Assembly: GCA_020725925.1 (NCBI GenBank)
Contig: DYTN01000004.1
Span: forward strand, 2,802-66,801
DNA length: 64,000 nucleotides
Origin: Methanobacteriota archaeon
GTDB taxonomy: Archaea > Thermoplasmatota > Thermoplasmata > UBA10834
Reading direction: 5' to 3'
Positions 2,685-47,531 of the stretch are shown piece by piece. Positions within the stretch are counted from its first letter, which is position 1. Each line of letters begins with the position of its first letter. The translations under genes were made by a program, and so were the position numbers. The notes below the pieces were generated by a model. The model ran no database searches. It saw nothing but the letters and a program-made list of their open reading frames with translations, and was not told where the DNA came from.

Positions 2685-2777
2685 GTCTTCCCCAGACCCC
2701 GCCTGAACTCTCGGGCACGCAAACCCGGCCAACCTTTCATTCGTATGGAGAGTGATACCTGACCCTGTCAGGAGGAA

Positions 2778-13599: not shown

Positions 13600-16500
13600 C
13601 TACAGCCTAGAGAGATCCTCTTCCTCTGCCGGCTTCTTCTTCTGAGGCCGCTGCTCCTTCGAACGCCTTCTGGGCCGCTCCTCCGCCTCCTCGCGCTCCT
13701 CTTCCTCGGGCTCTTCCTCGGGTTCCCGCCCACGCTCGCGCCTGCGCTCCCTGGTCTCCTCGACCGCCTTTAGGGGCGTGTTGCACCTCGGGCACCTATC
13801 CGACCCCCGCACGCACTCCTTGCACAGGATGGCCTTGCACTTCTGGCATCTCGCTACCGCGATCCCGCCATGGAACAGGCATCTCCTGCCGACGAGGTCA
13901 GAAGGCACCTCCTTCTCCTTGCGCTCCTCCTCCCTGGGGAGCCTCTGCTTGGGCGCTCGCTCGCGGGGCCTCTCCCTGAAGGCCTCGACCTCCCTGCTGT
14001 ACCTGGGCCTGACCCTCGGCGGCTCCTCCTCCACTTCCTCCTCGTACTCCGAAGGCATCGGAGGAGCTCTCCTGTGCGGCTCCCTCGGCTCCTCCCTGTA
14101 GGCCTCCTCCCGCGGAGGCCGCTCGCGCCTCATCGCCCTTTCATCATACGGCATGTACTGCCCGTAGCCCTCGCTCACGATGGATTTCAGCGAGACAGTC
14201 GGGGACTCGTACCCTGCGCCCTCGAAGGTCTGCAGGATGGTCGTGAGCTGTCTCGCCCAGTAGGCCCCGATCCCCAGGTTGCGGATCAGGCCCAGCACGT
14301 TCTTCTGGTCGTTCGGTATCTCGAGGGCCTGCCTGAGCAGCGCCTCTGTCTGCGGGTCGGTGGACTTCGTGCTGAACTCGTGGTTGTCGACGGCCTGGAT
14401 GTAGCTCAGGATCTTCTTCGCGCTCGAGATCTTCAGCTCAGGGAAGTTGACCGTGATGTCGCACAGCCTGAGCCCGTGCGCCGCGAGGTCCCGCTTCTCC
14501 ATGGCGTTCACGAGCACCTCCCGGGACATCTTCTCGTACCTGTCGAACTCCTCCTTGCTCATGCCCGACAGGCTGATCTCCGCCTTGCCGCTCAGGAAGT
14601 CCATGACGTCGCCCAGGAAAGCGTACGGTATGCCGCAGACCCTGAAGGCCTCCTCCTTGGTGACGGGCCTGCCGTTGGAGTACTCGAAATCGAGCACCGA
14701 CCTCGCGTAGTCCTCTATCTTGCTCTTCCGGATGTCCGCCTCTGCCTGCTTCCGCCCCTCCGTCGCCGCCTCGAAGTACGGGTCGATGCTGAGCGCGTGG
14801 TCGAAGCACCTGAGGGCCTGCTCCGGCCGGTTGAGCGTGAGCAGTACCTGGGCCTTGCTCTTCCAGGCCTCTTTGTCGTTGGAGTCGAGGCCTATCGCCC
14901 TGTCGTACGAACTCACGGCTTCCTCGAACAATCCTTGCTTCTCCATCGCGTAGCCCTTGCTCATCCAGATCTTCGAGTTGGAGCTGTCGATGTCGAGGGC
15001 CTTGTCGAAGCAGTTGTTGGCGTCCTGGAACCTGTTGACTTCCAGGTGCAGGAGCCCGAGCCTGTACCAAGCCGCCTGGTCCGTCTGGTCGGCTTCTAGG
15101 GCCTTCATGTAGGACTTGATGGCCTCCTCCTTGTTCCCCGTGGCCTCGAACGCCTTCGCCCTGCTCTTCCACATGTCCTTGTCGTTCGAGCCCAGCCTGA
15201 TGGCCTCATCGAACGAGCCCAACGCTTCAGAGACCCTGTTGAGCTTCAGCAGGGCCATGCCCATGTACTTGAAGGTGGAGACGTCGTTCGGCGAGAGCCT
15301 CCTGGCCTCGTTGAACGAGCCGATGCTGTCCTCGAACCTGCCCATGGCTGCGAGCGCGCGCCCCTCGTTGGTGTGGAACTCAGCCGCGTTGGGGAGTATC
15401 TTGATGGCCTTCTTGAAGTCCGAGAGGGACTCCTCGAACCGCCTGAGCTCGAGGTACGCCCTGCCCCTGTTGTTCAACACGAACGGCTGGCTCGAGTCCA
15501 ACTTGATGGCGTGCTCGAACGACTCCGCGGCCTGGGCAGGGTTCCCGGCGGCGAGGAGCAGCAGCCCCTTCCTGTTCAGCAGGAATATGTCCTTCGGGTC
15601 CAGGACCAGAGCGCTCTCGTAGCTCCTGAGGGCCTCGTCGCTCCTCCCGAGCTTCTCGAGGGCGCTCGCGCGGTCGGAGAGCGCGTTCTTATTCTTCGGG
15701 CTGATCCGGAGTATCTGGTCGGTGACATGGATGACGCTCTCAGGCTCGTCCAAAGCGATGAGCGCGAGCTTCTTGAGCTCGAGCGTGTCGAGGTCGTCTG
15801 TGTGATGCTCAAGGGCCTTGTTGAAGCAGGCGAGCGCCTCGTTCGGGCGCTTCAGGAACAGGGAAGCGCTGCCCTTGTCCAGGAGCGCCTCTCGGTCCTT
15901 CGGGGAGACCTGAAGGATCTCGTTGCAGACGGCTGTGACCTCCTCGTTGCGCTTCAGGGACTTGAGCAGGTCCTTCTTCGCGTTGAGCACGGGGATGTTC
16001 TTGGCGGAGATCCTGAGCGCCTCGTCGTACGCCCTCAGGGCCTCCTCCATCCTGCCGAGCTTCGTGAGTATCTGGCCCTCCTTGATCCTCAGCTCGGACG
16101 AGGCCACGTTGAGCCGGACGGCCTCCCTGATGGATGTGAGGGCCTCGTCCCTGCGCTCGAGCCACTCGAGCGCGAGCGTTCTCTGGAGCCAGATATCCGG
16201 GTCCCTCGGGTCAACCTTGAGCGCGCGGTCGAAGGAGACGAGCGCCTGCTCGTACCTCTTCAGCTCTATCAGCGCCTTGCCCATGGTCGTGTACGCCAGC
16301 TTGTCGCTCGGGTCCAGCTCGACGGCCTTCGCGTACGAGCTCACCGCCTCGTCGTATTCCTTGCCTCTGAAGGCCGCCTCGCCCCTCACGCGCCAGAGCG
16401 CGATGCTGTTCGGGGCGGCATGCAGGCCCTGTTTGGCGTAGTCAAGGGCCTCCTTCGGCTTGCCCACCCTGAGGAACATGGACGATACGTTGTAGTAGAC

Positions 16501-18060
16501 TTCGGGGTTGCTAGGATCGTGCTTCAGCGCGAGCCTGTACGCCGCGAGGCTGTCGTCGAACCTCTCAAGCCTGTCCAGGGCGACGGCCTTGTCGAAGTGC
16601 GCCGCCTTGTTCTTCTCGTCCGCGGCGATGATCCTGTCGCATGTGTGGATGACGTCGGCATCCTTCTGCAGCTGCTTGTAGGCCTCCTTGAGGCTCTCGA
16701 GCATCGGGAGCTGGTCCGGGGCGCTCTTGAGTGCCTTCTCGAAGGTCTTGACCGCGTCATGCGGCTTCGCGGACTTCATCTGGGCAACGCCCTTGTCGTG
16801 CATGGCCACGAGGTCGTTGGGATCGAGGTCCAGGATTCTGTTGCACACTGCTATGACCTCGCCGTGCCTCTGTAGCTTGATCAGGCAGTCCTTCTTGAGG
16901 AACAGCGAGTCCTTGGATTTCGGGGACAGGTTGAGCGCAGCGTCTGCGAATGTAAGTGCCTCGCCATGCCTGCCCAGCGCTGCCAGCGCCTTCGCCTTGT
17001 CCAGAAGAGTTTCGTGGTCCTGAGGGCTGAGAAGGAGTATCCTGTCGCATGTCGCGGCAACGTCCTCGTGCCTCCCCGACTTCTGGAGGGTCTTCTTCCT
17101 GTTCACGAGCACGTTGAGGTCGTTCGGATCGATCCTGAGGGCCCTGTCAAAGGATTCGAGGGCCCTGTCGTGCATGCCTAGCTCCTCCTGCACAACCCCC
17201 AGCTCGTTCCAGACGATCTTGTTGCCGTGGTCTATCTCCGCCGCTTTGGAGAAGCACTCGAGCGCCTCTTGTGGTCTGCCGAGCTTGTGAAGAATGCGGC
17301 CCATGTTGTCAAGGCAGTACGCGTCGTTCGGGTCCACCTTGAGGGCGGCACCGAGCGACTGCACGGCCTCCTCCCTCTTGCCCGCGAGGTTCTGTGAGGT
17401 CGCTTTTGCTATCCAGAGGTCCTTGTCCTTGGGCTTGAGCTGTATGGCCGCCTGGAACGTGCGCGTGGCGTCGTCATGTCGCTGCAGGCGCGTGAGCGCG
17501 AGCCCCTTCTTTCGTATCATCTCGACATCGCTGGGCGTGTGCGCGAGTATGCCGTCGTAGTGTATGATCCCGTCCGGGTTGATCTCGATGGCCTTCCCGT
17601 AGCTGTCGACCGCGTTCGTGATTTCACCCGCGACGTCGTACGCCTCCCCGAGTGCGTGCCAAAGCATCTCAGCCTGAGGGACTAAGGCGACGGCCTTCTT
17701 CAAGGAGCTGATCGCCTCCTGGGTCATGCCTAGCCTGAGCGCGGCCCGTCCCTCGACCCCCATCGCCTCCGCGTTGTCACTATTCAGCTGGAGGGCGACC
17801 TTGGCGGCATCCTGGGCCATCTGCGCGCGGTCGAATGTGAGGTACTTCGCCCCGAGGGCGGAGAATATCTGGGAGAACTCCACCCTCATCTTGCCGATGA
17901 AGAGCATGTTCTCCTTGAGCATGTTGCTGGTCTTGTCGAGCTCGGCGAGGGCCTCCTTGGGCCTGCCGCCGCGCTCGAGCGAGTCGACTTTGGCCAGTTC
18001 CTTCTTGGTCTTCTCGAGGAGCTTCTTCTCCTTGTTCAGCAGAGCATCGAACAATCCCAA
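13600..18060 (-). CDS. Giant TPR-repeat protein (1486 aa) with a C-terminal Cys zinc ribbon and a highly charged Glu/Arg-rich tail
   Basis: More than 30 tandem 34-residue TPR-like units (W/L-G-Y-A-F-P pattern) over about 1000 aa. Then a non-repeat region, a zinc ribbon CLFHGGIAVARCQKCKAILCKECVRGSDRCPRCN, and an ERRRERGREPEEEPEEEEREE tail. Confidence 0.75.
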   Translation of the reverse strand: MGLFDALLNKEKKLLEKTKKELAKVDSLERGGRPKEALAELDKTSNMLKENMLFIGKMRVEFSQIFSALGAKYLTFDRAQMAQDAAKVALQLNSDNAEAMGVEGRAALRLGMTQEAISSLKKAVALVPQAEMLWHALGEAYDVAGEITNAVDSYGKAIEINPDGIIHYDGILAHTPSDVEMIRKKGLALTRLQRHDDATRTFQAAIQLKPKDKDLWIAKATSQNLAGKREEAVQSLGAALKVDPNDAYCLDNMGRILHKLGRPQEALECFSKAAEIDHGNKIVWNELGVVQEELGMHDRALESFDRALRIDPNDLNVLVNRKKTLQKSGRHEDVAATCDRILLLSPQDHETLLDKAKALAALGRHGEALTFADAALNLSPKSKDSLFLKKDCLIKLQRHGEVIAVCNRILDLDPNDLVAMHDKGVAQMKSAKPHDAVKTFEKALKSAPDQLPMLESLKEAYKQLQKDADVIHTCDRIIAADEKNKAAHFDKAVALDRLERFDDSLAAYRLALKHDPSNPEVYYNVSSMFLRVGKPKEALDYAKQGLHAAPNSIALWRVRGEAAFRGKEYDEAVSSYAKAVELDPSDKLAYTTMGKALIELKRYEQALVSFDRALKVDPRDPDIWLQRTLALEWLERRDEALTSIREAVRLNVASSELRIKEGQILTKLGRMEEALRAYDEALRISAKNIPVLNAKKDLLKSLKRNEEVTAVCNEILQVSPKDREALLDKGSASLFLKRPNEALACFNKALEHHTDDLDTLELKKLALIALDEPESVIHVTDQILRISPKNKNALSDRASALEKLGRSDEALRSYESALVLDPKDIFLLNRKGLLLLAAGNPAQAAESFEHAIKLDSSQPFVLNNRGRAYLELRRFEESLSDFKKAIKILPNAAEFHTNEGRALAAMGRFEDSIGSFNEARRLSPNDVSTFKYMGMALLKLNRVSEALGSFDEAIRLGSNDKDMWKSRAKAFEATGNKEEAIKSYMKALEADQTDQAAWYRLGLLHLEVNRFQDANNCFDKALDIDSSNSKIWMSKGYAMEKQGLFEEAVSSYDRAIGLDSNDKEAWKSKAQVLLTLNRPEQALRCFDHALSIDPYFEAATEGRKQAEADIRKSKIEDYARSVLDFEYSNGRPVTKEEAFRVCGIPYAFLGDVMDFLSGKAEISLSGMSKEEFDRYEKMSREVLVNAMEKRDLAAHGLRLCDITVNFPELKISSAKKILSYIQAVDNHEFSTKSTDPQTEALLRQALEIPNDQKNVLGLIRNLGIGAYWARQLTTILQTFEGAGYESPTVSLKSIVSEGYGQYMPYDERAMRRERPPREEAYREEPREPHRRAPPMPSEYEEEVEEEPPRVRPRYSREVEAFRERPRERAPKQRLPREEERKEKEVPSDLVGRRCLFHGGIAVARCQKCKAILCKECVRGSDRCPRCNTPLKAVEETRERRRERGREPEEEPEEEEREEAEERPRRRSKEQRPQKKKPAEEEDLSRL

Positions 18061-18870: not shown

Positions 18871-18982
18871 TGCAGGTGCCGGGATTCGAACCCGGGCCGT
18901 TGGCTTTCGTCCCTCTCCATTTTATCTTCTTTCAACGGAGCGGCTGGAAGGCCAAGATCCTAACCAGCTAGATTACACCTGC
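18871..18982 (-). tRNA. tRNA-Gly (anticodon UCC) with an intron of about 40 nt (roughly 18905-18944) adjacent to the anticodon loop; no encoded CCA
   Basis: The reverse-complement strand folds. Acceptor GCAGGTG/CACCTGC. D-arm ATCT-AGCTGGTTA-GGAT. Anticodon stem TTGGC/GCCAA with loop CTTCCA(G) and anticodon TCC. T-arm CCGGG-TTCGAAT-CCCGG. Discriminator A. Confidence 0.75.
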
Positions 18983-20551: not shown

Positions 20552-21553
20552 TTAAGCGACAAAAGCCGATGCCTTGTCCTTCCACCGACCAACGTATTCC
20601 GCAAACATATGCTCGCTGCTCTTGAAAAGGGAGACCGGTCTCCCTCTCTCTACTGAGAAGACGCCAATTTCAGCCATCTGTGAAGCTCGAGATAGGACTT
20701 TGCTCTGTGGTTTGGGCTTGATTCCGTAGAGTCTGTGCTGATACTCTGAGAGATCCTTGTCGCTCATCCCGAGTCTTCTGTCTGCGAAATATGACGGGAG
20801 ATAGTTTGAGTTTGTCAGTCTTATGAAGGGCGTTATGTGTGTAAAATGAAGGAGATCAGCCATATATGCATGACCCTTCAGAATCGATTCAGACAATACG
20901 GTTGCATAAAGGTCCTCCAAGCTGCTGTCTTCCTTCAACTTCCTCGCACCGATCTCTCCGAAAACGTACTGCCCATCTTCCTTCTTCAGAATCTCCAATT
21001 CCACAAGGAACCTCAGGTACTGATTGACCTTGGTCTTGGATCTCCTTCCGTGAACGAAATCTGAAGCCTTGACAGTGTTTCTCATAACCACATTCGTTAC
21101 TATCTCATAGAGCGGGTTCATCTGATTCCGGATCTGATACAGCCTAAGGAATCGGCCGCCAATCACGCCCAGTAGTGCTCCTTCAGAACTGCTTCTGAAG
21201 CTGCCGAACTTAGATTCGATTCGCTCCGCAACGAACTTGCGATTTGGCAAGTCCAAATGCCAGCCGCCTTCGTCATGATCCACCTTGGTCTCGAAGACAT
21301 CCCTGAAGGGAGTGAACCTGACCTTGAAGAATCCTTCAGACGCGTCCCAGAGGTGTTGCTCTTTGACCGTCCCAAATGAATACACTTCCTCATTTCTGGC
21401 AGATGGCAATTCAGATAGAAAGAAGGACGTCCCCATGGTCCTGCGAACCAATGCCTCCACTTCGCGGGTGGAAACCTTCTGAGTGGTTAGAGGAATCCTG
21501 ATTATTTCGGACTCAGCTTTCGAGTTAGTCATGGTTCGCACCCATAATCCCAT
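20552..21553 (-). CDS. Hypothetical 333-aa protein, downstream partner of the C39-like peptidase
   Basis: ATG-initiated ORF overlapping the 3' end of the peptidase gene by 29 nt, which suggests translational coupling. Low GC. No recognised domain. Confidence 0.5.
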   Translation of the reverse strand: MGLWVRTMTNSKAESEIIRIPLTTQKVSTREVEALVRRTMGTSFFLSELPSARNEEVYSFGTVKEQHLWDASEGFFKVRFTPFRDVFETKVDHDEGGWHLDLPNRKFVAERIESKFGSFRSSSEGALLGVIGGRFLRLYQIRNQMNPLYEIVTNVVMRNTVKASDFVHGRRSKTKVNQYLRFLVELEILKKEDGQYVFGEIGARKLKEDSSLEDLYATVLSESILKGHAYMADLLHFTHITPFIRLTNSNYLPSYFADRRLGMSDKDLSEYQHRLYGIKPKPQSKVLSRASQMAEIGVFSVERGRPVSLFKSSEHMFAEYVGRWKDKASAFVA

Positions 21554-22175
21554 ACTTGTCTAGTGGTCCAGCAGGTCTCTGAACCCACATCACCCAGCGG
21601 GTCTCTTTACCCTCATCCCAGTATTTCAGCATTCTCACATCGGGGAGTGAGTTCTTGAAGCTTATTGCTCTACTCATATGTCCGGCAAATGGTTTGTAGG
21701 GGTCATGAAACCATACCATGCCGTCTTCAATCGCAACGACAACGAGGACATGATCCAGAATCATGCCTTCGAGATTGACCGGTTGCTGAGTGTGGTATTC
21801 AGGGCTTACGCCGACAATTGGATAAGATGCTGCCTCATCTTCGATTATTGATTTCAGCATCTGGAGCGTATTTCCACGATCTGCCTTCTCGAATACCCTG
21901 AAGGGGCTCCGCTTCTTGGCCAGATGGCTGTTGATGCTGGGAGTGACCGTCCCAATGGCACACCCTACTCCCTTTACATAGCCACATAGCTCATGCATGG
22001 TGCTCATCTTGATTCTCAACTCAGGAGATCCGGTCCTGGTCGCCAGGTCATCAAAGATATTCTTGAGGCAGGTCGGCCAACAAGTGTCTTTCAGATGCTG
22101 GACTTGCCATTTTGATGTCAGAAGTTCGAACTCAATATCATCCATTGTACCAGGCCTTGATTGATTTGCGAGCAT
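21525..22175 (-). CDS. Papain-like (C39-like) cysteine peptidase
   Basis: Gln/Cys-Trp catalytic motif QHLKDTCWPTC and His motif DHVLVVVAIEDGMVWFHDP (HxVVV...DP, as in the peptidase C39 family). The ORF is open to 22223, where the ORF track calls a TTG start; the first in-frame ATG (MLANQ) is at 22175. Confidence 0.45.
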   Translation of the reverse strand: MLANQSRPGTMDDIEFELLTSKWQVQHLKDTCWPTCLKNIFDDLATRTGSPELRIKMSTMHELCGYVKGVGCAIGTVTPSINSHLAKKRSPFRVFEKADRGNTLQMLKSIIEDEAASYPIVGVSPEYHTQQPVNLEGMILDHVLVVVAIEDGMVWFHDPYKPFAGHMSRAISFKNSLPDVRMLKYWDEGKETRWVMWVQRPAGPLDKYGIMGANHD

Positions 22176-22838
22176 TCCCCCAGATGCAGAGTTGATTATG
22201 CTGCATGTACCTCTCCTAGGCAACTACGCAGCAATCGAGTACTATCAGATAAATCCTTCCTGTGCCTGGATGAGGTGCATCGCGACAGAAACGCACCATT
22301 CAACAACTCATGCTTGACGATGAACTCACATAACTGCCTGAGACACTTGCGGGGTTCACATTCTGATGCATATGAACCGGGCTTCATCGAGACTTCTTTG
22401 CCTGCAGAGATGATGTTCTGATTCTGAACTCGTAGGCGGTCTGGCAGGCATCAAACGCTTGGAGCCTTACACTGTTCAAAACAAGACTCGGGCCTCGGAA
22501 AAGACCTCTATGATGAAGTGTCCCCTGCGCCTGGTCTGAATCGATGTTGTCGTTCTTCTTGGTTTGCCTCCGGTCGGGTTTCAGTCTGATTGGAGTTCGG
22601 ACATGCCTCCATTTGCGGTTTTCCCGTGATATGGCCACTTCGTCCATTGTCAGGGATCATCCCCAATCCCTACGTCGCACTCATTGCGTGCAGGAAGAAG
22701 ACCGGGGTCCAATCCTTGACTGCGACGTGAGGTCTCTGGAACCGAGCATAGCATGGCCTCTCGCTTATTCGTAGTTTCGCCTCTTGACGCAGGCGAAGAC
22801 CCTCTTCCACATACCATCCTTGTGGGCATTCTCGGAAA

Positions 22839-23573
22839 TTGAATACGATGAAGGTCGCGTTTCGCGAAATGCATATAAATGAATCAGCACATAACTTGGT
22901 CATGACATTCAAGATTAGTCCGAAGTACGATGCCGACTATCTGAAGGGAGATTCTGATATCGACAAGAAGTTGGACGTTTTTGAGGATCGTACGAAAGGA
23001 TGGACCCTTGAATGGGCCAAGAGACTCAGCGAGACTGAGCACGCTGGCTTCGCCGCGCTTGCTATAGCTCTCACTTACTTTGAAGCTCATGCTATCTACT
23101 ATAAGGGTGAGAGTTCAAATCCCAATAAATCGAAACAATTCTTCCGCGATGCATTCATTGATGTTTATGGGCATCATGTTCTTGGGATGGACCTGGCTGG
23201 CCGAATTGCAGATAATGTGTATGACCAAGGACGTTGCGGACTCTTCCACGAGGGAATGACAAAGGCAAAATTGCTGTTGAGGGATGATAACGGATCTGTG
23301 ACCTACTCCGAGGATTTCAACACTCATGAGCTTGTTGAGATATCGATAAATGTTCAAGAGTTCGTAAAGGAAATCGAGGCACATTTCCAAGAATACATGC
23401 AGAGACTACGAAAAAGCAGTGAAGTGACGTTGCGCAGGGATTTCGAGAGGTCATGGGACCGGGACTATCAACTCTCCATTCAGGCTTTGAGACAAGGCAC
23501 ACCGACGGAGGCGGTCCCAAGCACTCCACCGAATCCGGCTGCATCAGGTTCTCATTTGAGAGGGAACCCATAG
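22839..23573 (+). CDS. Hypothetical 244-aa protein with a possible HEPN-like Rx4H motif
   Basis: QGRCGLFHEG contains R-x4-H. There is no other motif. Low GC. Confidence 0.4.
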   Translation: MNTMKVAFREMHINESAHNLVMTFKISPKYDADYLKGDSDIDKKLDVFEDRTKGWTLEWAKRLSETEHAGFAALAIALTYFEAHAIYYKGESSNPNKSKQFFRDAFIDVYGHHVLGMDLAGRIADNVYDQGRCGLFHEGMTKAKLLLRDDNGSVTYSEDFNTHELVEISINVQEFVKEIEAHFQEYMQRLRKSSEVTLRRDFERSWDRDYQLSIQALRQGTPTEAVPSTPPNPAASGSHLRGNP

Positions 23574-23664
23574 TGCCCATTCTGCCGGGATCTGGACCCG
23601 GCGCGAGCTACACATCCTTTTTCTGATCTCAATCAAGTGGCGAATGTGCTCGCAGTTGAAACGC

Positions 23665-24966
23665 TTACTGTGGGGCTGGATTGCCCACAATTGATGCCTC
23701 GATTTGGCGAATCATTTCATCGCGAGATTGAATTTGATCCTTCAGGCACTTGCACAAGGCCTCTCGAGTAATCTCCTCCATGGCCGACGTTTGAGCCATA
23801 AGCTTGCTCTGGTCAAGATTTCTGGCGCCATGCAAGAGAAGTCCTCGTGCACGGTAAGCCTCCTTGACGGTGGCACGAATCTTCTTTCTTTCGACCGGTT
23901 CGGTCCCCAGGAAGTGAGCGATTCTCAGGCTGAGTCTATATGCGAACTCTCCGAATTCGACATCCTCTCCGAACAGCGATTCACAGGCAATCCAGTAATC
24001 AACCAAGGCTTCGTCCGGCCGTGGCCTGTCCACTGCATCACAGAATCTCTGAAGAGCCACCTTCCAGAAGGGAGGCTGTTTTTCTGCAATCTGTTCTACT
24101 AGCTTCCAGTAATGCCTAAGTCTAGGCAGACTCTGACTTTGGAGTGTGTAAGGTCTGCCAACTATTCTCCGTCGTGGGTAGGCAGTGCCTACGCGAACCG
24201 ACATGCCAGTCCAGCTCAGTGGTCGGCACCAGATAGTATCAAACCCTACTGACCCCGTCTCAGTCAACTTCATGATAGCTACGAACCACCAAAAGCAGTC
24301 TTGGTGCGTCTGTGTGAGTGCTGGGAAACCCCGCTTGACGACTGCTGTCATTTCAAGCACGAATCTCAGATGCCCGAATGGGAAGATTCTCGCTAGCGAA
24401 TCAGAGTCTGCTGCGATGCCATTGTACACAGCAAACTCATCAGCGTTCAACTTGCGAATGTTGAAAGGACCGACACGCTCCATGTCTGCTTCCATGGCGA
24501 AGTTGGCAAGCGGAGCTGAGAGGAGGTACTCGTCTTCCTCGCTGTTTAGGTAGTCTTCGAATGACTTGTAGTTCGATTCAAACTCTGCTTCCTTGAACTC
24601 GACGCCATCTTGCATGATTAGCTGGCGCGTAATCATTGGCTGGAGAATGTTGTATGCAAATGCCATGGGAACTACAGACGCTCCTTTGTCTTTGAGCAGA
24701 CTTGCTATGCTGCCGTGCCGAAGGAGGCCATTGGTCAAGGCTTCATTGGTCTTGTCATTGACGAAATCCAACGCAGTCGTTGCAGCAAGCAGTCGAAAGT
24801 CAGGCTTCGATTCTGACCCTACTGAAAAGGAACCATCCTTGCCAAACTCCACCTTGGGAACAAGCCTCTGTGGGAGTCCTCCTCTTCGGAGCACCGAGTC
24901 CCTAAGGACGCTCATGTAGCGAACAGTGAGGTCCTTGAGGGCGTTATACAAGATCTGATCTCGCAT
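23665..24966 (-). CDS. HEPN-domain abortive-infection-like protein (Abi/Apea-like)
   Basis: The C-terminal region YRLSLRIAHFLG ... KEAYRARGLLLHGARN contains the canonical HEPN Rx4-6H motif. Size is 433 aa. It lies in the low-GC island. Confidence 0.5.
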   Translation of the reverse strand: MRDQILYNALKDLTVRYMSVLRDSVLRRGGLPQRLVPKVEFGKDGSFSVGSESKPDFRLLAATTALDFVNDKTNEALTNGLLRHGSIASLLKDKGASVVPMAFAYNILQPMITRQLIMQDGVEFKEAEFESNYKSFEDYLNSEEDEYLLSAPLANFAMEADMERVGPFNIRKLNADEFAVYNGIAADSDSLARIFPFGHLRFVLEMTAVVKRGFPALTQTHQDCFWWFVAIMKLTETGSVGFDTIWCRPLSWTGMSVRVGTAYPRRRIVGRPYTLQSQSLPRLRHYWKLVEQIAEKQPPFWKVALQRFCDAVDRPRPDEALVDYWIACESLFGEDVEFGEFAYRLSLRIAHFLGTEPVERKKIRATVKEAYRARGLLLHGARNLDQSKLMAQTSAMEEITREALCKCLKDQIQSRDEMIRQIEASIVGNPAPQ

Positions 24967-25915: not shown

Positions 25916-26950
25916 ATGTATGTCTGGCTAGAGCGGTTTCGTGTCTCGCCGCCGACTCCGAGACCAACGGCATACGTTTCATATCGAATGATTTACAATA
26001 CCCATCAGCTCGGTATGCCGAACATTCGCAAATCTGTATTCGGCTCAAGGTCGGAAAGGAATCTGTACGCTACTCTTACTTCTAGATGGTCCAACCGTTT
26101 CAACGTTTACCCGAACCTTCCTTTCCTCAATATCATCGAAGTCAAGAAGAACGAACTGCCCGTCTTCGACTTTGAGGTTTTGAAGAAATCGAGCGTTGAT
26201 TACACACTCTGCACCAAGGATGACGCACCCGTTCTATCAATCGAATTCGATGGACTCGGCTACGGCTTCTCCCGAGATGGGAAGTACGTTCCCGTCGTCT
26301 ATGACATTCCCGACCCATACAGGCAGGAAAAGATGAATCGAAAATTGAGGGCCGCCGACAAAGCGAATTACCCTCTCGTAATACTGTCCTATTTCGAGAA
26401 GGAACCGATCGGCAAAGATCTTCAGATAACCTTGGTTGACGGAATCATCGGACAGATCCTTTCGAGACGACGGTTTGATGAACTGATGAATGAACGTCTC
26501 AAGGAGGAACCCGACATTCTGTCAAGACTATCCAAACGGGAGATGGATGACCTGATTGATGGCATCGAGATAGAGGCAGATTTCGAGGAGAATCCTCTTT
26601 CGCGGAAGGCGGCAATCGCTGAGGTGGAAGCTGTGAAGCGAGGCCTCTTGAAACGATGGTCATTCCATTATTTTGAGGAGCCTACTGCACCTGACCTCCT
26701 TTCCTGGCCGCCTGATCCTGAATCTCTTTCACGGAGAATTGATGCACTCAGGAACGCCGAATGGATTGGTGCTCGTATTGTTTCTGACACCCCTTCTGGG
26801 ATAGTATTGGAAACCGCAGCGAAAATCCGGAGCATCTCGGGCCATGGAGTCTCTCCCTTGATTCTCGTTGAGGATATCGTCAGACTTCTGCATGCAACGA
26901 AACTGCTGGACGACCACACTGAAGAGATCCCTAACAGAACCTCAACCTGA
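25916..26950 (+). CDS. DUF2726/NERD-like PD-(D/E)xK-type nuclease-related protein
   Basis: VDYTLCTKDDAPVLSIEFDGLGYGF fits the DUF2726 core (DF-hl...p-l-IE-DG), recalled from memory. 344 aa, low GC, next to the methyltransferase. Confidence 0.35.
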   Translation: MYVWLERFRVSPPTPRPTAYVSYRMIYNTHQLGMPNIRKSVFGSRSERNLYATLTSRWSNRFNVYPNLPFLNIIEVKKNELPVFDFEVLKKSSVDYTLCTKDDAPVLSIEFDGLGYGFSRDGKYVPVVYDIPDPYRQEKMNRKLRAADKANYPLVILSYFEKEPIGKDLQITLVDGIIGQILSRRRFDELMNERLKEEPDILSRLSKREMDDLIDGIEIEADFEENPLSRKAAIAEVEAVKRGLLKRWSFHYFEEPTAPDLLSWPPDPESLSRRIDALRNAEWIGARIVSDTPSGIVLETAAKIRSISGHGVSPLILVEDIVRLLHATKLLDDHTEEIPNRTST

Positions 26951-27027: not shown

Positions 27028-28563
27028 TTATGAAGAGTGCTCAGATAGCCTCGACTGTTTCTCCCTCTTCGCCAGCGGCTGTTTCTTCGCCTTTGGAGCT
27101 TGTGTGAATGTGGGATTGGTCTCCCTTGATGATACTGAATCAGGGCACTCAACCTTCTTGCCCTTCAATAGGTCTTCTATCGTAAGTAGCTGGATTCTCG
27201 GGTACTTCGGATTCCCAAGTTCTTTTGAAGTATAGAATCCCGCATCGGCGGCTTCAGAACGCATCTGTGGGGTGGGCTCGTTCAGACTGATCAACACGCC
27301 AATTGCAGCCTTCTCACGATCCACGACTCCATGTAGGTCTCTGACGTGGGCTGATGTTACATTGCCGGCCTTCACCGAGAATATGATTTGCTCCGACTTG
27401 GACCTCTCCACGAAGAAGTATAGGCGGCCGTCGATTCCCTTGTCAGCGCCCTTCTTCTGCTCGACGGGTCTAGCGCCTACTAGTCCGAGAGCCCACCATT
27501 GGAATTGGTATGGGTCTTGCTGGGCCAGTGCCTGCGCATCAGGTAGCGATACTGGTTCCCCAATCACCGTGTAGGATACCGTCTCTCCAAAAGCATCCTT
27601 GAGGCGATGTCTCATGAGTGTGATCGCAAGATGGGTGATATCAATTCCAATCCACTGTCTCCTCAGACGCTGGGCAACAGCAATTGTGGTCCCACAACCG
27701 CAGAACGGATCAAGCACCAAATCGCCCTCATTGCTACTCGTCGAGATAATCCGCTCAAGTAGACTTTCGGGCTTCTGAGTGGGATACCCAAGCCTCTCCT
27801 TCTTTGAGCCTGCAATGATTGATAATTCCCACACATCTCTCCGAGGCATGCCCCGAGTCTCCGCCTCCAACGTTATCTTCCTTGTTCCAGTCTCTGGGTC
27901 CAGCATCTGTGTCTTACCCTTGAACCTCTTCCAGTAGCTCTCGCTGACTGGTTCGTAGTCGACATTAAAGGTAATCGTTTGATTCGGGTCTCTCACATAG
28001 AAGAGAATCACGTCGTGCATGCGCTGATACATCTTCGAAGGCGTCGGCCACCTCCGATAGCTCCAGATGATTTCATTCTTGAAACAAGCTGGACTAAAGA
28101 CGGCATCCATAAGAATCTTGAGATGATGGCTTGCCGTTGGATCGCAATGCAGGTATATCGTCCCAGCTTGCTTGAGGACTCTCTTCATCTCGATTAGTCG
28201 GGGCGCCATCATTGATAGATAGGCGAGCATGTCGTTTGACCTGAGGATTCTTCTAAAAGCCTCCATTGTGTCTGCAAGCCTGCCGCCAAATGTGAGTGCA
28301 TCTTCGAATGCTTTGGCAGCTGCTTGGTCCCAATGCCAGGTGTCCTCAAAGGCCATGATTTGGGCTGCGGAACTGCTTCCATTGTGTTCCTTGAAAAGTA
28401 CGTTGTAATCTTGACCACTCTGAAAAGGTGGGTCAAGATAGATCAGATCAACGGTCTCGTCCTTGATGTACCGCTTGAGAATGTCGAGGTTGTCTCCGTA
28501 ATAGAGCATGTTTTCGGCTTTCCCTTCTGGCGTGTCCATCGTGTGGGAAATGGCTATTTGCAT
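27028..28563 (-). CDS. Beta-class N6-adenine/N4-cytosine DNA methyltransferase fused to a C-terminal Mrr-like restriction-endonuclease domain
   Basis: Motif IV DPPF (IYLDPPFQSGQDYN) precedes motif I (VLDPFCGCGTTIAVAQRL), which is the beta-class order. The C-terminal 150 aa carry KGADKGIDGRLYFF ... IIFSVKAGN, resembling the Mrr catalytic core (GIDG ... QxK-like). Confidence 0.7.
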   Translation of the reverse strand: MQIAISHTMDTPEGKAENMLYYGDNLDILKRYIKDETVDLIYLDPPFQSGQDYNVLFKEHNGSSSAAQIMAFEDTWHWDQAAAKAFEDALTFGGRLADTMEAFRRILRSNDMLAYLSMMAPRLIEMKRVLKQAGTIYLHCDPTASHHLKILMDAVFSPACFKNEIIWSYRRWPTPSKMYQRMHDVILFYVRDPNQTITFNVDYEPVSESYWKRFKGKTQMLDPETGTRKITLEAETRGMPRRDVWELSIIAGSKKERLGYPTQKPESLLERIISTSSNEGDLVLDPFCGCGTTIAVAQRLRRQWIGIDITHLAITLMRHRLKDAFGETVSYTVIGEPVSLPDAQALAQQDPYQFQWWALGLVGARPVEQKKGADKGIDGRLYFFVERSKSEQIIFSVKAGNVTSAHVRDLHGVVDREKAAIGVLISLNEPTPQMRSEAADAGFYTSKELGNPKYPRIQLLTIEDLLKGKKVECPDSVSSRETNPTFTQAPKAKKQPLAKREKQSRLSEHSS

Positions 28564-29933: not shown

Positions 29934-30737
29934 ATGGAAATAACCAAACAAGCAAGAATCGAAATGGAATCAAAGAAACTCGCAATGAAGATTCGGAATG
30001 TGAAGAGCGAACTTCCTGATATTCACTCGCTTCAGAGCCCGCTACACAAGTCACTGTGGGCACTCGCGGCAGCTAAGGAGGCAGGGGAGGACAGACCTCT
30101 GACATCGCAGAGAATGAGGATTCTTCTCGAGGTGTTCGATGTGGCAATCACGGACAGTCAGATCACAAACGCCCTGTCCAGATCCGGGGACAAGATCATC
30201 AGGAAGAATCGCGATGGAGTGCGAGGATACAAGATTGCCTTCACCGGTAAGACAGCTCTCATGAATACCGCTGGTGGGGAAGGTATCGAGGTGATATATG
30301 CAGAACCCGGCAACCGATGGAAGGCGCGAAGGCAATTGAGTGAACTTGCTGGCTCATTGAAGGGAGACCTTCTAGCTGTCGACAAGTATTATGGAGAGAG
30401 GACCCTGTACACACTCGAAACTCTAGCTAATCGCAAAGAGAATGTGCGATTCATTACATCCCATACAAGAGAGAATGCGCAGAAGCTCTCTGCGCTCTTT
30501 GGAGACCTCATGAATGCCAAGCCGAACTTGGAGGTTAGATTGTATTCCGGGAAGCATGACCTGCATGATAGGTACATCCTGTCAGACGATGCTCTTGTAC
30601 TGGTTGGTCACGGCCTCAAGGATTTGGGAGCGAGCGAGTCGTTCGTTGTTCGACTTGACACCAGGGTTGTCGGTGAACTCATGTCGCTTGTACGATGTAG
30701 TTTTGAAGATCGTTGGAGCAAATCGACTCCCATTTAG
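29934..30737 (+). CDS. Hypothetical 267-aa protein with an N-terminal wHTH-like region and a possibly divergent PLD-like (HxK to HxR) C-terminal motif
   Basis: C-terminal SGKHDLHDRYILSDDALVLVGHGLKD loosely resembles the HxKx4Dx6GSxN phospholipase-D/nuclease motif, with Arg in place of Lys and GHG in place of GSxN. The N-terminal region resembles the two small upstream proteins. Confidence 0.35.
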   Translation: MEITKQARIEMESKKLAMKIRNVKSELPDIHSLQSPLHKSLWALAAAKEAGEDRPLTSQRMRILLEVFDVAITDSQITNALSRSGDKIIRKNRDGVRGYKIAFTGKTALMNTAGGEGIEVIYAEPGNRWKARRQLSELAGSLKGDLLAVDKYYGERTLYTLETLANRKENVRFITSHTRENAQKLSALFGDLMNAKPNLEVRLYSGKHDLHDRYILSDDALVLVGHGLKDLGASESFVVRLDTRVVGELMSLVRCSFEDRWSKSTPI

Positions 30738-30866: not shown

Positions 30867-31264
30867 AGAAAATGACACGGAAAGGAATTGTTCCCTTCGA
30901 CTTCTTCGTATTCTAGTTATGGTGCGGTCGACCAATCCGCTTTCGATTGCAGCGGCAATCTTCCTGCGGCGCATGAATCTAGGGGTTGGTCGATTATCTC
31001 GTGTCCTAGACCTCTGCAACGATTCTAGCGCGCTAATCGGGGCCTCCCTCAGCCTTCGAACAGATCAAGCCAGTGTCTCAAGAAATGAGGGAAAAACTGC
31101 AATTTACATGAACGGTCAAAGGGGCTTATGTCCTTCACCTGGCACATTCTTGACATACTGGCTTCGTACCTCCCATAAAGGTTAATATGGGACGGCATCG
31201 TTGGTGGCGCTCACGAACAGAGCAAGGTTCCAGATCGACATTCTTATCAGAGCCAGGGGGAAGC

Positions 31265-32293
31265 ATGCTGAAGAGCGGTTTCGTGCCGAGGATTCTGTCC
31301 TGGAACACCACTAACAGATGTAATCTCAAATGCGCTCACTGCTACATGGATGCGAAGGACAGAGCGAGCACTAACGAGCTCACGACTGATGAGGGCAGGA
31401 AGCTCATAGACGAGATTTCTGAGGTTTCCAAGTGCGTCCTCGTTCTCAGCGGCGGGGAGCCGATGCTGAGAGCAGACATCTACGAACTGGCTGCTCACGC
31501 GAGATCCAAAGGACTCCGGGTCGTCATGGGCACGAATGGTACCTTGATTTCAAGAGAGGCTGCGAGGAATCTAGTCTCGGCAGGAGTATCCAGAGTCGCC
31601 ATATCCCTGGACGGGTGCGATGCGGCAATGCACGACTCGGTCAGGAGGGTTGAGGGTGCGTTCGAGGCCGCAATTGCGGGTGCGGAGGCCTGCAGGACCG
31701 CAGGTCTCGAGTTCCAGGTGAACTCGACGGTTTTCCCCCACAGCTTCAGTAGGATTCCTGACACTATCAGGACCGCGAAGAGAATCGGTGCGGCGGAGTT
31801 CCACCTGTTCTTTCTCGTCCCCACTGGTAGAGGTGTGTCCTTGAAGGACGTCGGCCCTTGGGACTACGAGAACATGCTACACCAGCTCTTGCCTCTTGAG
31901 AAGGAGGTCGGAATCCACATAAAGCCGACCTGCGCTCCGATGTACATGCGGGTATCCAAGCAGAGAGGAGGGAACGCCACAGAGAGATACTCACGGGGCT
32001 GTCTGGCCGGGATTTCGTACTGCAGGATAAGTCCGGAGGGAGGGGTTTACCCGTGCCCGTACCTGCCACTGGAGGTCGGCAGCGTTCGATCCCACAGCTT
32101 CGGAGAGATCTGGTTCAACGCACCCTTGTTCGCCGACCTGAGGAACTTCTCAAAGCTCAAGGGGAAGTGCAGAGTGTGCGAATTCAACGATATCTGCGGT
32201 GGCTGTAGGGCGCGGGCGTACGCGCTCGCTGGCGACGTTCTCGCTCCTGATCCGTGGTGCGTTCATGTGCCCAAGAGGAATCGAAATGGTTAG
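31265..32293 (+). CDS. Radical-SAM/SPASM enzyme of the AhbC/AhbD (NirJ-like) family: Fe-coproporphyrin III synthase or heme synthase
   Basis: CNLKCAHCY (CxxxCxxC) radical-SAM cluster motif and a C-terminal Cys-rich SPASM region (CRVCEFNDICGGCRARA), in an ahb/hem cluster. The start is more likely the MLKSGF methionine than the ORF-track start at 31187. Confidence 0.7.
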   Translation: MLKSGFVPRILSWNTTNRCNLKCAHCYMDAKDRASTNELTTDEGRKLIDEISEVSKCVLVLSGGEPMLRADIYELAAHARSKGLRVVMGTNGTLISREAARNLVSAGVSRVAISLDGCDAAMHDSVRRVEGAFEAAIAGAEACRTAGLEFQVNSTVFPHSFSRIPDTIRTAKRIGAAEFHLFFLVPTGRGVSLKDVGPWDYENMLHQLLPLEKEVGIHIKPTCAPMYMRVSKQRGGNATERYSRGCLAGISYCRISPEGGVYPCPYLPLEVGSVRSHSFGEIWFNAPLFADLRNFSKLKGKCRVCEFNDICGGCRARAYALAGDVLAPDPWCVHVPKRNRNG

Positions 32294-32780
32294 AGGACAT
32301 CCCGACTATCTTGACAAGAAGCTGGTCGCTGAACTCCAGCTGAGGTTTCCCCTGACAGAGAGGCCGTTCGAGGAAGTGGGGAGGCGACTTGGACTTTCGG
32401 AGGCGGAAGTGCTGAGCCGAACCCGGGAAATGATCCGCGAGGGAATCGTCCGGAGAATCGGATACATGGCGGGGAAGAGTCTTCAGAAGATGAAATCGAG
32501 CACACTCGTCGGAATGAAAGTCGAGACGGACAGAGCTGACTGGGCAGCGTCGGTCATCAGCAACTACAGAGAAGTCACCCACAACTATCTCCGAGACAAC
32601 GAACTCAATCTTTGGTTCACGGTGAGCGCATCCGACCGAGGACGTCTCGAGGACGTGGTTCGGGAAATTGTGACGAAAGTGCGGCCGCTCGACTGGATCG
32701 AGCTGCCATCCGTGAAGTCCTTCAAGCTTCTCACACCATCTGTCGGCATTTCCGAACAGGGGGTATCTTCACTTGGCTGA
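32286..32780 (+). CDS. Siroheme decarboxylase subunit (AhbA/AhbB, NirDL-like Lrp/AsnC fold)
   Basis: LDKKLVAELQLRFPLTERPFEEVGRRLGLSEAEVLSRTREMIREGIVRRIGY matches the NirD/L/G/H pattern. The ATG overlaps the upstream stop codon. Confidence 0.65.
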   Translation: MVRGHPDYLDKKLVAELQLRFPLTERPFEEVGRRLGLSEAEVLSRTREMIREGIVRRIGYMAGKSLQKMKSSTLVGMKVETDRADWAASVISNYREVTHNYLRDNELNLWFTVSASDRGRLEDVVREIVTKVRPLDWIELPSVKSFKLLTPSVGISEQGVSSLG

Positions 32781-33228
32781 CCTCACGATTCTAAGGGCAG
32801 TGGAAGACGGCATCGAGATGGTACCGAGGCCCTTCGAGGCAGCTGCGAAAAGGGCCGGCACTGACGAGGAGTCTGTGGTTCGCGAATTGAAAACTGTGCT
32901 CGAAAATGGCACGATACGCTTCTTCGGGGCGATCGTGGACCACAGAACTCTCGGGAAGCTCGTCAATGCGATGGTCGCGTGGGATGTGGAGGACAGCGCG
33001 GTAGATTCAGTCGGCAGGTCGTTCGCCGCAATCCCGATGGTCAGCCACTGTTACGAGAGGACGAGGGTTCCTGGCAAGTGGAAATACAACCTGTTCACAA
33101 TGGCTCACGCTGGGAACGAAGATGAACTCGAAGCGTTTCTCAAGGAGGGGCGTCGCCTGACGACAGGCGCAGACTGCATCGTGCTCAGGACCCTGAAAGA
33201 ATACAAGAAGACGGGGGTGAAGTTCTGA
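32773..33228 (+). CDS. Siroheme decarboxylase subunit (AhbA/AhbB), second paralog
   Basis: Same family (LTILRAVEDGIEMVPRPFEAAAKRAGTDEESVVRELKTVLENGTIRFFGA). Tandem with the previous gene. Confidence 0.65.
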   Translation: MADLTILRAVEDGIEMVPRPFEAAAKRAGTDEESVVRELKTVLENGTIRFFGAIVDHRTLGKLVNAMVAWDVEDSAVDSVGRSFAAIPMVSHCYERTRVPGKWKYNLFTMAHAGNEDELEAFLKEGRRLTTGADCIVLRTLKEYKKTGVKF

Positions 33229-33248
33229 AGTCGTCACTTGTCCCTCTG

Positions 33249-33863
33249 ATGATAGATTTCAATGGGAGGTTGGTGATCATCATCGGAGGAGGGCAGGTTG
33301 GTCTCAGGAAGGCGAGTGTCTTCTGTCGCGCAGGAGCTGATGTGCGCGTGATCAGCAAGGATTTCGCGAAGGGATTCAAGAGACTCCCCGCGAAGCTTGT
33401 GAAGGTCAGGAACTTCGAAGACCTGGGGTTGCTGAAGCATGCGTTCCTCGTGGTTGCAGCCACGAACGACCATGACCTGAACTCGCAAATCAAGCGCTCG
33501 TGCCGAGAGGCGGGAGTGATGTGCAACTCAGTGGACGACGAGGATTCAGATGTGTACCTTCCCTCAATCATCGCGCGAGGTCCCCTGACCATCTGCATAA
33601 GCACCCGTGGTGCGAGCCCAGCCCTTTCAAAGAGAGCCCGAATCATGATAGAGGAATTCATAGGGCCTGAATGGGGAAAGATGGCCGTCCTGTTGGCCGA
33701 GGCTAGAGTGATGCTCAAAAGCTCAATTGCCGCTCAGTCGTCGAGGAAGGAGGTCCTGAGTGGGATCCTCAATGACAAGGCAATATGGTCACAGCTGAGG
33801 AAAGGAGACATCGCAGGGGCGCGACGAACGATAACCAAGAGGCATCTGGAGGGAGGCAAGTGA
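33249..33863 (+). CDS. Precorrin-2 dehydrogenase / sirohydrochlorin ferrochelatase (SirC/CysG N-terminal domain-like)
   Basis: NAD-binding motif LVIIIGGGQVGLRKASVFCRAGADVRVI. At 204 aa the size is typical for SirC. Confidence 0.65.
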   Translation: MIDFNGRLVIIIGGGQVGLRKASVFCRAGADVRVISKDFAKGFKRLPAKLVKVRNFEDLGLLKHAFLVVAATNDHDLNSQIKRSCREAGVMCNSVDDEDSDVYLPSIIARGPLTICISTRGASPALSKRARIMIEEFIGPEWGKMAVLLAEARVMLKSSIAAQSSRKEVLSGILNDKAIWSQLRKGDIAGARRTITKRHLEGGK

Positions 33864-35119
33864 TTGGAGTCATAAGCGCTCACATAACGCACAGATGGGT
33901 CGACATCAAGAAGCTCGAGTTGTACGCAGCGAAGGAGGCAAGATCCCTACTCTCGTCAATAAAGGACCTCGATTCGGTGTGCGAGTGTGCTCTGCTCAAG
34001 ACGTGCAACAGGGTGGAGATATATGTTGCGACCACAAACCCCGAAAGGACCAAAGCTGCACTCGAAGCAATGATTCTCAATTTCGTCGAGGGTTCTGAGA
34101 GAAACCATGTTCAGTTCCTCTCCTCGACGGGCTCTGTCAGGCACCTCGCAAGGGTCACCAGCGGGCTCGACAGCATGATCGTGGGCGAGGACCAGATTCT
34201 TGCACAGGTGAAAGAGGCCTACGAGTTCGGGATCAAGGAGGGCACGATCGGTAAGACATTGGGGGAGGTTTTCCGAAAGGCGATCAGCATCGGGAAGAAG
34301 GTCAGAACAGAGACTGGTGTGAACAAGGGTGGCGTGTCGATCGGGTCTGCAGCTGTCGAACTGGCCAATGGGCTGCTCTCGTCGCTCCAGAACCGTACCA
34401 TACTCGTTGTCGGTGCGGGAGAAGTCTCCAGACTAGTGGCCAGGTCCCTCGCAAGTCACAATGTCAAGGCAATTTTCGTGGCCAACAGAACCTACGACGC
34501 CGCCGAGCAACTAGCCGCTGAACTCGGTGGAGAAGCAGTCCACTTCGACAGGCTCCCTGAGCGCCTTAGGATGAGCGACGTCGTGATCTGTGGAACCTCT
34601 GCGCCACATGTTGTCATTGACAAATCGGATCTAGTTCGTGCATTCGGCCCCGCTGGTCCAGCAACCCCTCTCCTGATGATCGACATAAGCAACCCCAGGA
34701 ACATCAGCGAGGATGTCCTTGAGCTGCCGAACGTCCAGCTTCACGACATGGACGGCCTCAAAGAGGTTGCGGAGAGGAATGAGGAACGAAGGAAGAATGA
34801 AATCGAGAGGGCCGAAAAGACGATTGACTCGGAACTCGAGCTGATGAAGTCCAGGTTCGAGGAAAGGAGAGACTCCGAGGAGACAGTCCGACTCCTCCAC
34901 ACATATGTGGGCCGGATAAGGGAATCCGAGTATGCAAAAGCAGTGAATAAGCTCAACGGTGTCGACGAGCGCCAGAAGAAGGTGATGTACGATATGCTGA
35001 TGTCCGTCACGAAAAAGATCCTCGCCGAACCCACGGAGAGCCTCAAGGAAGCCTCCAAGAACGGAGAGCAGGAACTCATCGATGCAACGGAGAAGCTCTT
35101 CAAGCTCAGGAGGAGATGA
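33860..35119 (+). CDS. hemA: Glutamyl-tRNA reductase
   Basis: Catalytic Cys motif LLKTCNRVEIY, NADPH-binding LVVGAGEVSRLVARSL, and a C-terminal dimerisation helix. A GTG start at 33860 overlaps the sirC stop codon (the ORF track is open from 33785). Confidence 0.8.
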   Translation: MIGVISAHITHRWVDIKKLELYAAKEARSLLSSIKDLDSVCECALLKTCNRVEIYVATTNPERTKAALEAMILNFVEGSERNHVQFLSSTGSVRHLARVTSGLDSMIVGEDQILAQVKEAYEFGIKEGTIGKTLGEVFRKAISIGKKVRTETGVNKGGVSIGSAAVELANGLLSSLQNRTILVVGAGEVSRLVARSLASHNVKAIFVANRTYDAAEQLAAELGGEAVHFDRLPERLRMSDVVICGTSAPHVVIDKSDLVRAFGPAGPATPLLMIDISNPRNISEDVLELPNVQLHDMDGLKEVAERNEERRKNEIERAEKTIDSELELMKSRFEERRDSEETVRLLHTYVGRIRESEYAKAVNKLNGVDERQKKVMYDMLMSVTKKILAEPTESLKEASKNGEQELIDATEKLFKLRRR

Positions 35120-35120
35120 A

Positions 35121-36101: not shown

Positions 36102-36104
36102 GCG

Positions 36105-47465: not shown

Positions 47466-47531
47466 GCCGGATTTGAACCGACGGTCACGTGGTCCCGAAC
47501 CACGGATCATACCAAGCTAGACCACTACCCC
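47458..47531 (-). tRNA. tRNA-Pro (anticodon CGG), 74 nt, no encoded CCA
   Basis: The reverse-complement strand folds. Acceptor GGGGTAG/CTACCCC. Anticodon stem CGTGG/CCACG with loop TTCGGGA and anticodon CGG. T-arm GTCGG-TTCAAAT-CCGGC. Discriminator A. The D-stem has one mismatch and a 9-nt loop. Confidence 0.65.

Follow-up and report, generated by a model that had tools for sequence, protein, structure and literature searches.

A putative HEPN effector remotely allied to ApeA and a candidate solo HEPN-like protein, tail-to-tail in an archaeal defence island

Two neighbouring genes, here called geneA and geneB, lie in a window of 64,000 nucleotides (positions 2,802 to 66,801 of contig DYTN01000004.1, assembly GCA_020725925.1) from a Methanobacteriota archaeon placed by GTDB in the Thermoplasmatota; all coordinates below are those of the window unless a locus is named. 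Both encode proteins with an R-x4-H motif of the type found in HEPN RNases, and the interpretation that we favour, with moderate confidence, is that they are two independent single-gene defence or abortive-infection effectors which stand tail-to-tail by chance in a low-GC defence island. We conclude that the C-terminal part of geneB is in all likelihood a true HEPN domain with a remote kinship to the ApeA type, while for geneA a HEPN nature is plausible on the basis of its motif, predicted topology and genomic context. The features of the two genes are as follows.

22839 to 23573, forward strand: open reading frame (ORF) of geneA in its longest form, 244 amino acids (aa), TTG start
22902 to 23573, forward strand: geneA from its preferred start, ATG 22902; 223 aa, stand-alone, candidate solo HEPN-like RNase
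23082 to 23084, forward strand: invariant Glu of geneA, E82 (244-aa numbering) or E61 (223-aa numbering), in the second long helix; a candidate for the acidic residue of HEPN helix 2
23232 to 23249, forward strand: geneA motif R-C-G-L-F-H, R132 to H137 (244-aa numbering) or R111 to H116 (223-aa numbering)
23574 to 23664, no strand: convergent intergenic spacer of 91 bp, with a hairpin CCGGG-ATCTGGA-CCCGG and then a T-run, as read from the sequence
23665 to 24966, reverse strand: geneB ORF, 433 aa, ATG start
23665 to 24081, reverse strand: putative C-terminal HEPN domain of geneB, residues ~296-433
23830 to 23847, reverse strand: catalytic-type motif of geneB, R374-G-L-L-L-H379; family consensus A-Y-x-x-R-S-x-I-V-H-G
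24082 to 24966, reverse strand: N-terminal region of geneB, ~295 residues; candidate sensor or regulatory region

Both ORFs are intact and full-length, and an earlier note on this DNA had placed them and their motifs correctly: the peptide QGRCGLFHEG is found in geneA, and KEAYRARGLLLHGARN, with R374 and H379, in geneB. The same note had described the genes as divergently arranged and the 433-aa protein as ending with its motif, and neither description holds: the geneA stop at 23573 on the forward strand faces the geneB stop at 23665 on the reverse strand, a convergent arrangement, and 55 residues, predicted to form two helices, follow the motif of geneB. The gene that is divergent from geneA is an unrelated 232-aa ORF (21525 to 22223, reverse strand), across a 680-bp non-coding gap. 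The 244-aa ORF reported for geneA does exist from TTG 22839, but sequence comparison indicates that the true start is probably ATG 22902, giving 223 aa, because the NCBI-called product (P0017) is the 223-aa form and the homologues all start just ahead of a conserved I-S-P, near M22 in the 244-aa numbering.

The motif had been called textbook, yet taken by itself it stands at chance level. Because 0.5-0.6 chance matches per protein are expected (0.48 and 0.60 for R-x4-H from composition, and 1.4 and 1.8 for R-x4-6-H), and geneB holds four R-x4-6-H patterns, the motif alone does not exceed chance; its conservation does. In an alignment of 86 distant relatives of geneB, with a mean identity of 23%, H379 and Y371 are present in all 86 sequences, G380 in 85, and R374 and E329 in 84 each; D323, R348, R401 and R307 are also near-invariant, and the remaining R..H patterns of geneB are not conserved. 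For geneA, 46 aligned sequences (24% mean identity) share W34, E61, G69, F81, R111, G113, H116 and F181 without exception (223-aa numbering, used from here on), and the residue after the Arg is C in 42 of them and N in the rest, the family motif being R-[CN]-G-[LF]-F-H-x-G. In both proteins the motif is conserved far beyond the remainder of the sequence.

GeneB belongs to a large family. Close relatives number 15, at 39-73% identity, and an exhaustive profile search retrieved 7,318 representatives of 50%-identity clusters at E<=1e-3 (2,056 at E<=1e-10), spanning archaea and bacteria; most matches, including most of the best 150, are full-length, in proteins of 420-470 aa. No relatives were found in a scan of genome contigs or in scans of viral contigs. 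The AlphaFold2 (AF2) model of geneB (mean predicted local distance difference test score, pLDDT, 86.4; predicted template-modelling score, pTM, 0.83) is helical over residues 1-140, beta-rich over residues 141-295 and helical in the C-terminal domain, with helices at 302-312, 317-332, 341-353, 357-378, 386-409 and 415-427. In canonical HEPN domains the R-x4-6-H lies where helix 3 ends, and an acidic residue is expected in helix 2 (PMC3710099). The AF2 secondary-structure assignment of geneB likewise places its R-x4-6-H at a helix end, with a Glu upstream: R374 stands at the end of helix 357-378, H379 opens the loop before helix 386-409, and E329 lies in helix 317-332. When the family profile was compared with all PDB sequences, a single match was obtained, Ec4ApeA (9hxm, E 0.0054), made of two colinear segments, the A..RF...E....YW.ALE.L helices and Y.LR..IVH, with R374 and H379 falling on RNTIVH of ApeA. 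This sole match, the practically invariant motif at a predicted helix end and the upstream Glu support the HEPN reading of geneB put forward in the earlier note.

Several further signals point the same way, though none of them, the PDB match included, is strong. Pfam HEPN_Apea reaches a close relative of geneB (P0015) with E 0.0015 and 19.4 bits, below its cutoff of 24.4, and Pfam HEPN_RiboL-PSP reaches one of the 86 distant relatives with E 8e-4; a Foldseek search of the PDB places the HEPN protein 2hsb at rank 4 (prob 0.72, E 0.49); and in hhalign the C-terminal domain, set against three ApeA sequences, gives P 0.0045 (0.0045-0.007 over the ApeA comparisons), while a reversed control gives 0.06. 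A reciprocal hidden Markov model (HMM) made from three ApeA sequences was too shallow to inform. Relatives called 'HEPN domain-containing protein' in RefSeq occur on plasmids of Leisingera, Natrinema, Halorubrum and Cupriavidus. Pfam, NCBIfam and PADLOC gave no above-threshold match for geneB or its 15 close relatives, and only sub-threshold HEPN matches among 86-93 distant relatives. Since Ec4ApeA itself, run as a control, also draws no HEPN_Apea match, the silence of Pfam is uninformative for geneB. Of the other families named in the earlier note, geneB matches none (Abi_C, DUF4145, Swt1, LsoA and RnlA). Membership in AbiD/AbiF/AbiJ/AbiV, DUF4145, Swt1, RnlA or LsoA was rejected, and Pfam HEPN and Abi_2 models gave no matches.

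ApeA, reportedly presented by Gao et al. 2020, resembles geneB in being a partnerless single gene with a long non-catalytic N-terminal region and a C-terminal HEPN domain, in the order of its parts (helical N-terminal part, mixed alpha/beta middle, HEPN), in the alignable R/H and upstream A..RF / ALE.L helices, and in its occurrence in defence islands and on plasmids. In contrast, ApeA proteins have 513-619 aa, against 433 aa in geneB, and their HEPN domain (residues 335-583 in Ec2ApeA) holds ~100 residues between the ALE.L and R..H helices together with H3-H4 insertions, whereas that of geneB is compact (~138 residues), with about 40 residues in between and a 7-residue H3-H4 loop; the residue after the Arg is N in ApeA and G or S in the geneB family, and the N-terminal and middle regions of the two cannot be aligned. 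Because only the HEPN core aligns (two short segments shared with three ApeA proteins in hmmsearch and hhalign), because PADLOC ApeA matches neither geneB nor its 86 relatives, and because the HEPN domain is compact and not split, membership of geneB in the ApeA family proper was rejected.

The comparison also bears on the N-terminal part of geneB. ApeA is a single-protein HEPN antiviral tRNA anticodon nuclease with a structure determined by cryo-EM (PDB 9hxm), in which tRNA anticodon cleavage is switched on when a ligand binds in a pocket that lies between its N-terminal and HEPN domains (10.64898/2026.01.26.701840). The ~295-residue N-terminal region of geneB, being arranged as in ApeA, is an obvious sensor candidate and likely to be the sensor; it has no Pfam, PDB or Foldseek match, and its conserved aromatic residues are F129, Y133, Y139, Y147, W227, W252 and W287. 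The earlier statement that neither antitoxin nor sensor was evident is misleading as to a sensor for geneB; no antitoxin was found in the flanks. On the Enterobacter plasmid NZ_CP109698.1, an Ec4ApeA-type gene (1520-3349 of the examined locus), called 'hypothetical protein', adjoins the anti-phage gene ppl. At E<=0.1, Pfam HEPN_Apea matches neither this gene nor a Pantoea ApeA homologue, and since both ApeA proteins escape it, HEPN_Apea leaves some of the experimentally defined ApeA family uncovered.

Relatives of geneA numbered 15 at first search and 44 by profile search (46 sequences aligned), and come from archaea, Bacteroidota, Chloroflexota, cyanobacteria and Rhizobiaceae; no Pfam domain or name is attached to any of them. 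In the AF2 model (mean pLDDT 81.8), two long helices are followed by a third helix, a helix ending in R111, a loop with H116, a three-stranded sheet and two helices. R111 closes helix 96-111, H116 lies in the next loop and E61 in helix 49-68, so that the predicted structure has its conserved R-x4-6-H where a helix ends, with a polar residue following the R, and an acidic residue in helix 2; the modelled topology fits a HEPN domain with a helical insert between H2 and H3 and a beta insert between H3 and H4. Scans of geneA and all 46 members with Pfam, NCBIfam and PADLOC gave nothing relevant, the family profile found only noise among PDB sequences, and the best E of Foldseek against the PDB was 0.74, its top 50 containing no HEPN entry; against BFVD it returned two unnamed viral proteins (prob 0.95-0.97). 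Scans of viral contigs gave only two geneA relatives, tblastn against a phage collection gave no matches, and in viral collections each of the families is either rare or lacking altogether.

Two single-protein HEPN systems offer further comparison. HepS, the HEPN Solo defence element of the Salmonella prophage Gifsy-1, is opened by a phage tail-tip protein (PMC13043305). Like geneA, it is a mobile-element-encoded, stand-alone protein of about 200 aa with an R-x4-H near residues 100-116, small beta elements on a helical core and no conserved partner; in HepS, however, the N- and C-termini supply the beta-strands, which form only when the trigger binds, whereas the sheet of geneA is predicted between the motif and the next helix, and neither sequence nor Foldseek searches match geneA to a PDB entry. 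DARNA (PD-T7-3) is an ssDNA-activated HEPN tRNase that combines HEPN and a single-stranded DNA (ssDNA)-sensing domain in one protein (10.64898/2026.02.22.705581). Its motif, R117-x4-H122, has a position similar to that of geneA, but geneA has only ~100 residues past the motif; the HEPN domain of DARNA is N-terminal and followed by a ~300-aa Pds5-like helical domain, the opposite of the order in geneB, and no PADLOC or PDB matches were obtained.

The contexts of relatives, examined at five other loci for geneB and nine other loci for geneA, are typical of defence or mobile DNA. Relatives of geneB adjoin type I restriction-modification (RM) genes and an HD protein, integrases, SLFN/AlbA, HNH and Doc genes, as well as an 'abortive infection protein' and a DUF3375 (JetA-like) protein. 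Relatives of geneA lie beside Shedu on an Agrobacterium plasmid and beside a DUF4145 HEPN protein in a Chloroflexota contig; others have GmrSD, RM and toxin-antitoxin genes nearby, stand amid TIR/ThsB/Cas9 genes on a conjugative element, or are carried by conjugative plasmids. In Tenacibaculum mesophilum (CP195834.1, 5582-7603 of the examined locus), a geneA homologue starts one base past the McrC gene, in a run of methyltransferase (MTase), Res helicase, McrB and McrC; it could be operonically coupled with McrBC in that lineage, an arrangement absent from the other examined loci. The geneA family is absent from 5/5 geneB-relative loci and the geneB family from 9/9 geneA-relative loci, and an all-against-all BLAST of neighbouring ORFs found no conserved partner for either.

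The weight to be given to these results depends on a set of negative ones, which count against the interpretation preferred here. No Pfam, NCBIfam or PADLOC model reaches threshold for geneB, geneA or their close families, and Foldseek against the PDB has no match at E<0.3 for either model; the link between geneB and ApeA is remote, at 19 bits and an hhalign probability of 5-8%, and confined to the HEPN core; geneA has no homology signal to any HEPN family in sequence, profile-profile or fold searches, hhalign of its family against the geneB HEPN domain or ApeA being no better than reversed controls. Because every homology test failed, the HEPN assignment of geneA is one that we infer, not a demonstrated membership: the invariant R[CN]GLFH, the Glu and the defence contexts speak for the reading given in the earlier note, but no search links geneA to HEPN. 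GeneA could instead be an alpha/beta protein of undescribed fold, in which Arg, His, Glu and Trp serve other chemistry or binding and the R-x4-H spacing is coincidental. This would account for the missing links to HEPN families in Pfam, NCBIfam, PADLOC, PDB-sequence, Foldseek-PDB and profile-profile searches, for an R-x4-H expected 0.6 times by chance and for the three-stranded sheet after the motif. It would leave unexplained, however, that 46 sequences of such low mean identity all keep R, G, H and the upstream Glu, that motif and Glu occupy the places they have in canonical HEPN domains, the one at a helix end with a loop after it, the other in the second long helix, that some members have after the R an N, the typical HEPN polar residue, and that relatives recur in defence islands; an H3-H4 insertion is likewise found in ApeA. 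We therefore regard a non-HEPN geneA as unlikely, though deserving serious attention.

That the two genes form one functional unit (a toxin-antitoxin system, a heteromeric HEPN pair, or one gene regulating the other) is suggested by their adjacency, their shared R-x4-H and their common low-GC island, but we hold it to be highly improbable. The genes are convergent and therefore not co-transcribed, their families have no detectable relationship, the partner family is absent and no neighbour is conserved at the five and nine loci, and the flanks contain no nucleotidyltransferase (MNT) or antitoxin-like gene, and no repeats (tandem or inverted) or Rfam families upstream that might indicate an RNA antitoxin. 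Neither gene has a conserved, adjacent, co-oriented partner: they are not a pair, and are unrelated single-gene systems. The HEPN-MNT (HepT/MntA) and AbiF/AbiD type III-like systems share with them a minimal HEPN toxin logic and a presence in defence islands, but have an adjoining MNT, upstream repeat or RNA antitoxin that geneA and geneB lack; a HEPN-MNT toxin-antitoxin system was rejected, there being no MNT partner and no conserved neighbour, and the genes being convergent. Finally, the patchy distribution of both families, on plasmids, integrative elements and islands, might befit selfish addiction or competition modules or decaying cargo, without antiviral function, or the HEPN domain of geneB might be a non-catalytic nucleotide- or RNA-binding module. 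We consider this improbable, as strong purifying selection acts on the catalytic-type residues throughout thousands of clusters, HEPN domains that lose catalysis typically lose the R-x4-6-H (PMC3710099), both ORFs are intact and their neighbours are mostly defence genes.

If the two genes are independent effectors, geneB would act as a sensor-effector, with its N-terminal ~295 residues as sensor and a compact C-terminal HEPN domain (R374/H379, E329, R307, D323, R348, R401) as effector. By analogy with ApeA, HepS and DARNA, it would be made constitutively and held inactive; its HEPN domains would pair to form a composite R/H site, and an infection cue at the N-terminal region would release metal-independent cleavage of RNA, most likely tRNA anticodon loops or other cellular RNA, leading to arrest of the infected cell. 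GeneA would most likely work along the same general lines, as a solo HEPN-like RNase. We infer on this basis, for both genes, that they act as RNases and dimerise, what triggers them and what they cut, and a defence phenotype; for geneA, the HEPN fold as well. A bolder proposal, which we advance tentatively and with somewhat less than even confidence, is that geneA founds an unrecognised family of solo HEPN-like RNases of ~200 aa, without Pfam, PADLOC or PDB relatives, marked by an invariant W..E..G..F..R[CN]G[LF]FH and a beta insert behind the catalytic loop and found in defence islands of archaea, Bacteroidota, Chloroflexota and cyanobacteria and on Rhizobiaceae plasmids, and that geneB represents a family of >7,000 clusters of compact 'mini-ApeA' sensor-effectors common to archaea and bacteria, responding to a cue other than the deoxydinucleotides of ApeA.

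Both genes lie inside a low-GC defence island of ~10.7 kb (about 20.3-31 kb; ~50% GC, against 62% in the flanks), which together with its edge contains the following other features.

18871 to 18982, reverse strand: tRNA, 112 nt; Rfam 54.8 bits, missed by ARAGORN
20552 to 22223, reverse strand: two-gene overlapping operon, 232 aa then 333 aa; no family assigned
25916 to 26950, forward strand: DUF2726-like protein, 344 aa; near-threshold DUF2726 match
27028 to 28563, reverse strand: N6/N4 DNA methyltransferase-Mrr fusion, 511 aa; methyltransferase Pfam E 6e-49, C-terminal Mrr-cat / NA-iREase1-type endonuclease domain
29934 to 30737, forward strand: PLD-like protein, PADLOC candidate PDC-S05, 267 aa; E 3e-11

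The 511-aa fusion may work as a restriction-modification enzyme in a single chain, or as a methylase whose nuclease domain is inactive, and the 267-aa PLD-like and 344-aa DUF2726-like proteins are probable additional defence genes of the island; the 333-aa protein of the operon has only weak winged-helix / Sso10a-like matches. The tRNA, which sits at the edge of the GC drop where the island begins, is read from its sequence as a putative intron-containing tRNA-Trp, because a CCA anticodon is followed by an insert of ~40 nt. A sigma-70 promoter scan has no meaning for an archaeon, and here it performed no better than on shuffled sequence.

Elsewhere in the window, a second low-GC patch (about 41-47.5 kb) ends in a tyrosine integrase gene (46521-47465, forward strand), which overlaps tRNA-Pro(CGG) (47458-47531, reverse strand) by 8 nt; on account of this overlap the patch is probably an integrated element, for which no att repeat was found. 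A tetrapyrrole cluster of intermediate GC (55-60%) at 31187-40971 on the forward strand comprises GlutR, ALAD, a HemL-type aminotransferase, PBG deaminase and HemD, and, as two radical-SAM/SPASM proteins flank it on both sides, suggests the alternative (Ahb-type) haem pathway; relatives of its ALAD come from mixed phyla and do not exceed 61% identity. A helicase (62353-63942, reverse strand) matches archaeal Hel308 with E 1e-99 and, together with the putative intron-containing tRNA, makes it very probable that the host is an archaeon. Two giant ORFs of about 1,490-1,500 aa lie at 13600-18060 and 55563-60071, both on the reverse strand, and the former encodes a tetratricopeptide-repeat (TPR) protein whose C-terminal tail is charged and whose end is Cys-rich and zinc-ribbon-like.

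HEPN RNases are among the commonest abortive-infection effectors, and to our knowledge those with known triggers are few: ApeA, HepS, DARNA, PrrC, Csm6 and Cas13. Both genes studied here are ordinary defence-island content, geneB being a new member of the HEPN abortive-infection kind and geneA possibly a new solo-HEPN family, and neither changes the general picture of how such systems work. The family of geneB has no Pfam, NCBIfam or PADLOC model and is therefore missed by detection built on those libraries; a model for it would fill a gap, above all where archaeal defence is concerned, and in its N-terminal domain it offers a candidate for a new infection sensor. The family of geneA is small and unannotated and recurs beside McrBC, Shedu, TIR/Thoeris-like and RM genes; should it prove to be a solo HEPN, a further family of that kind would stand beside HepS.

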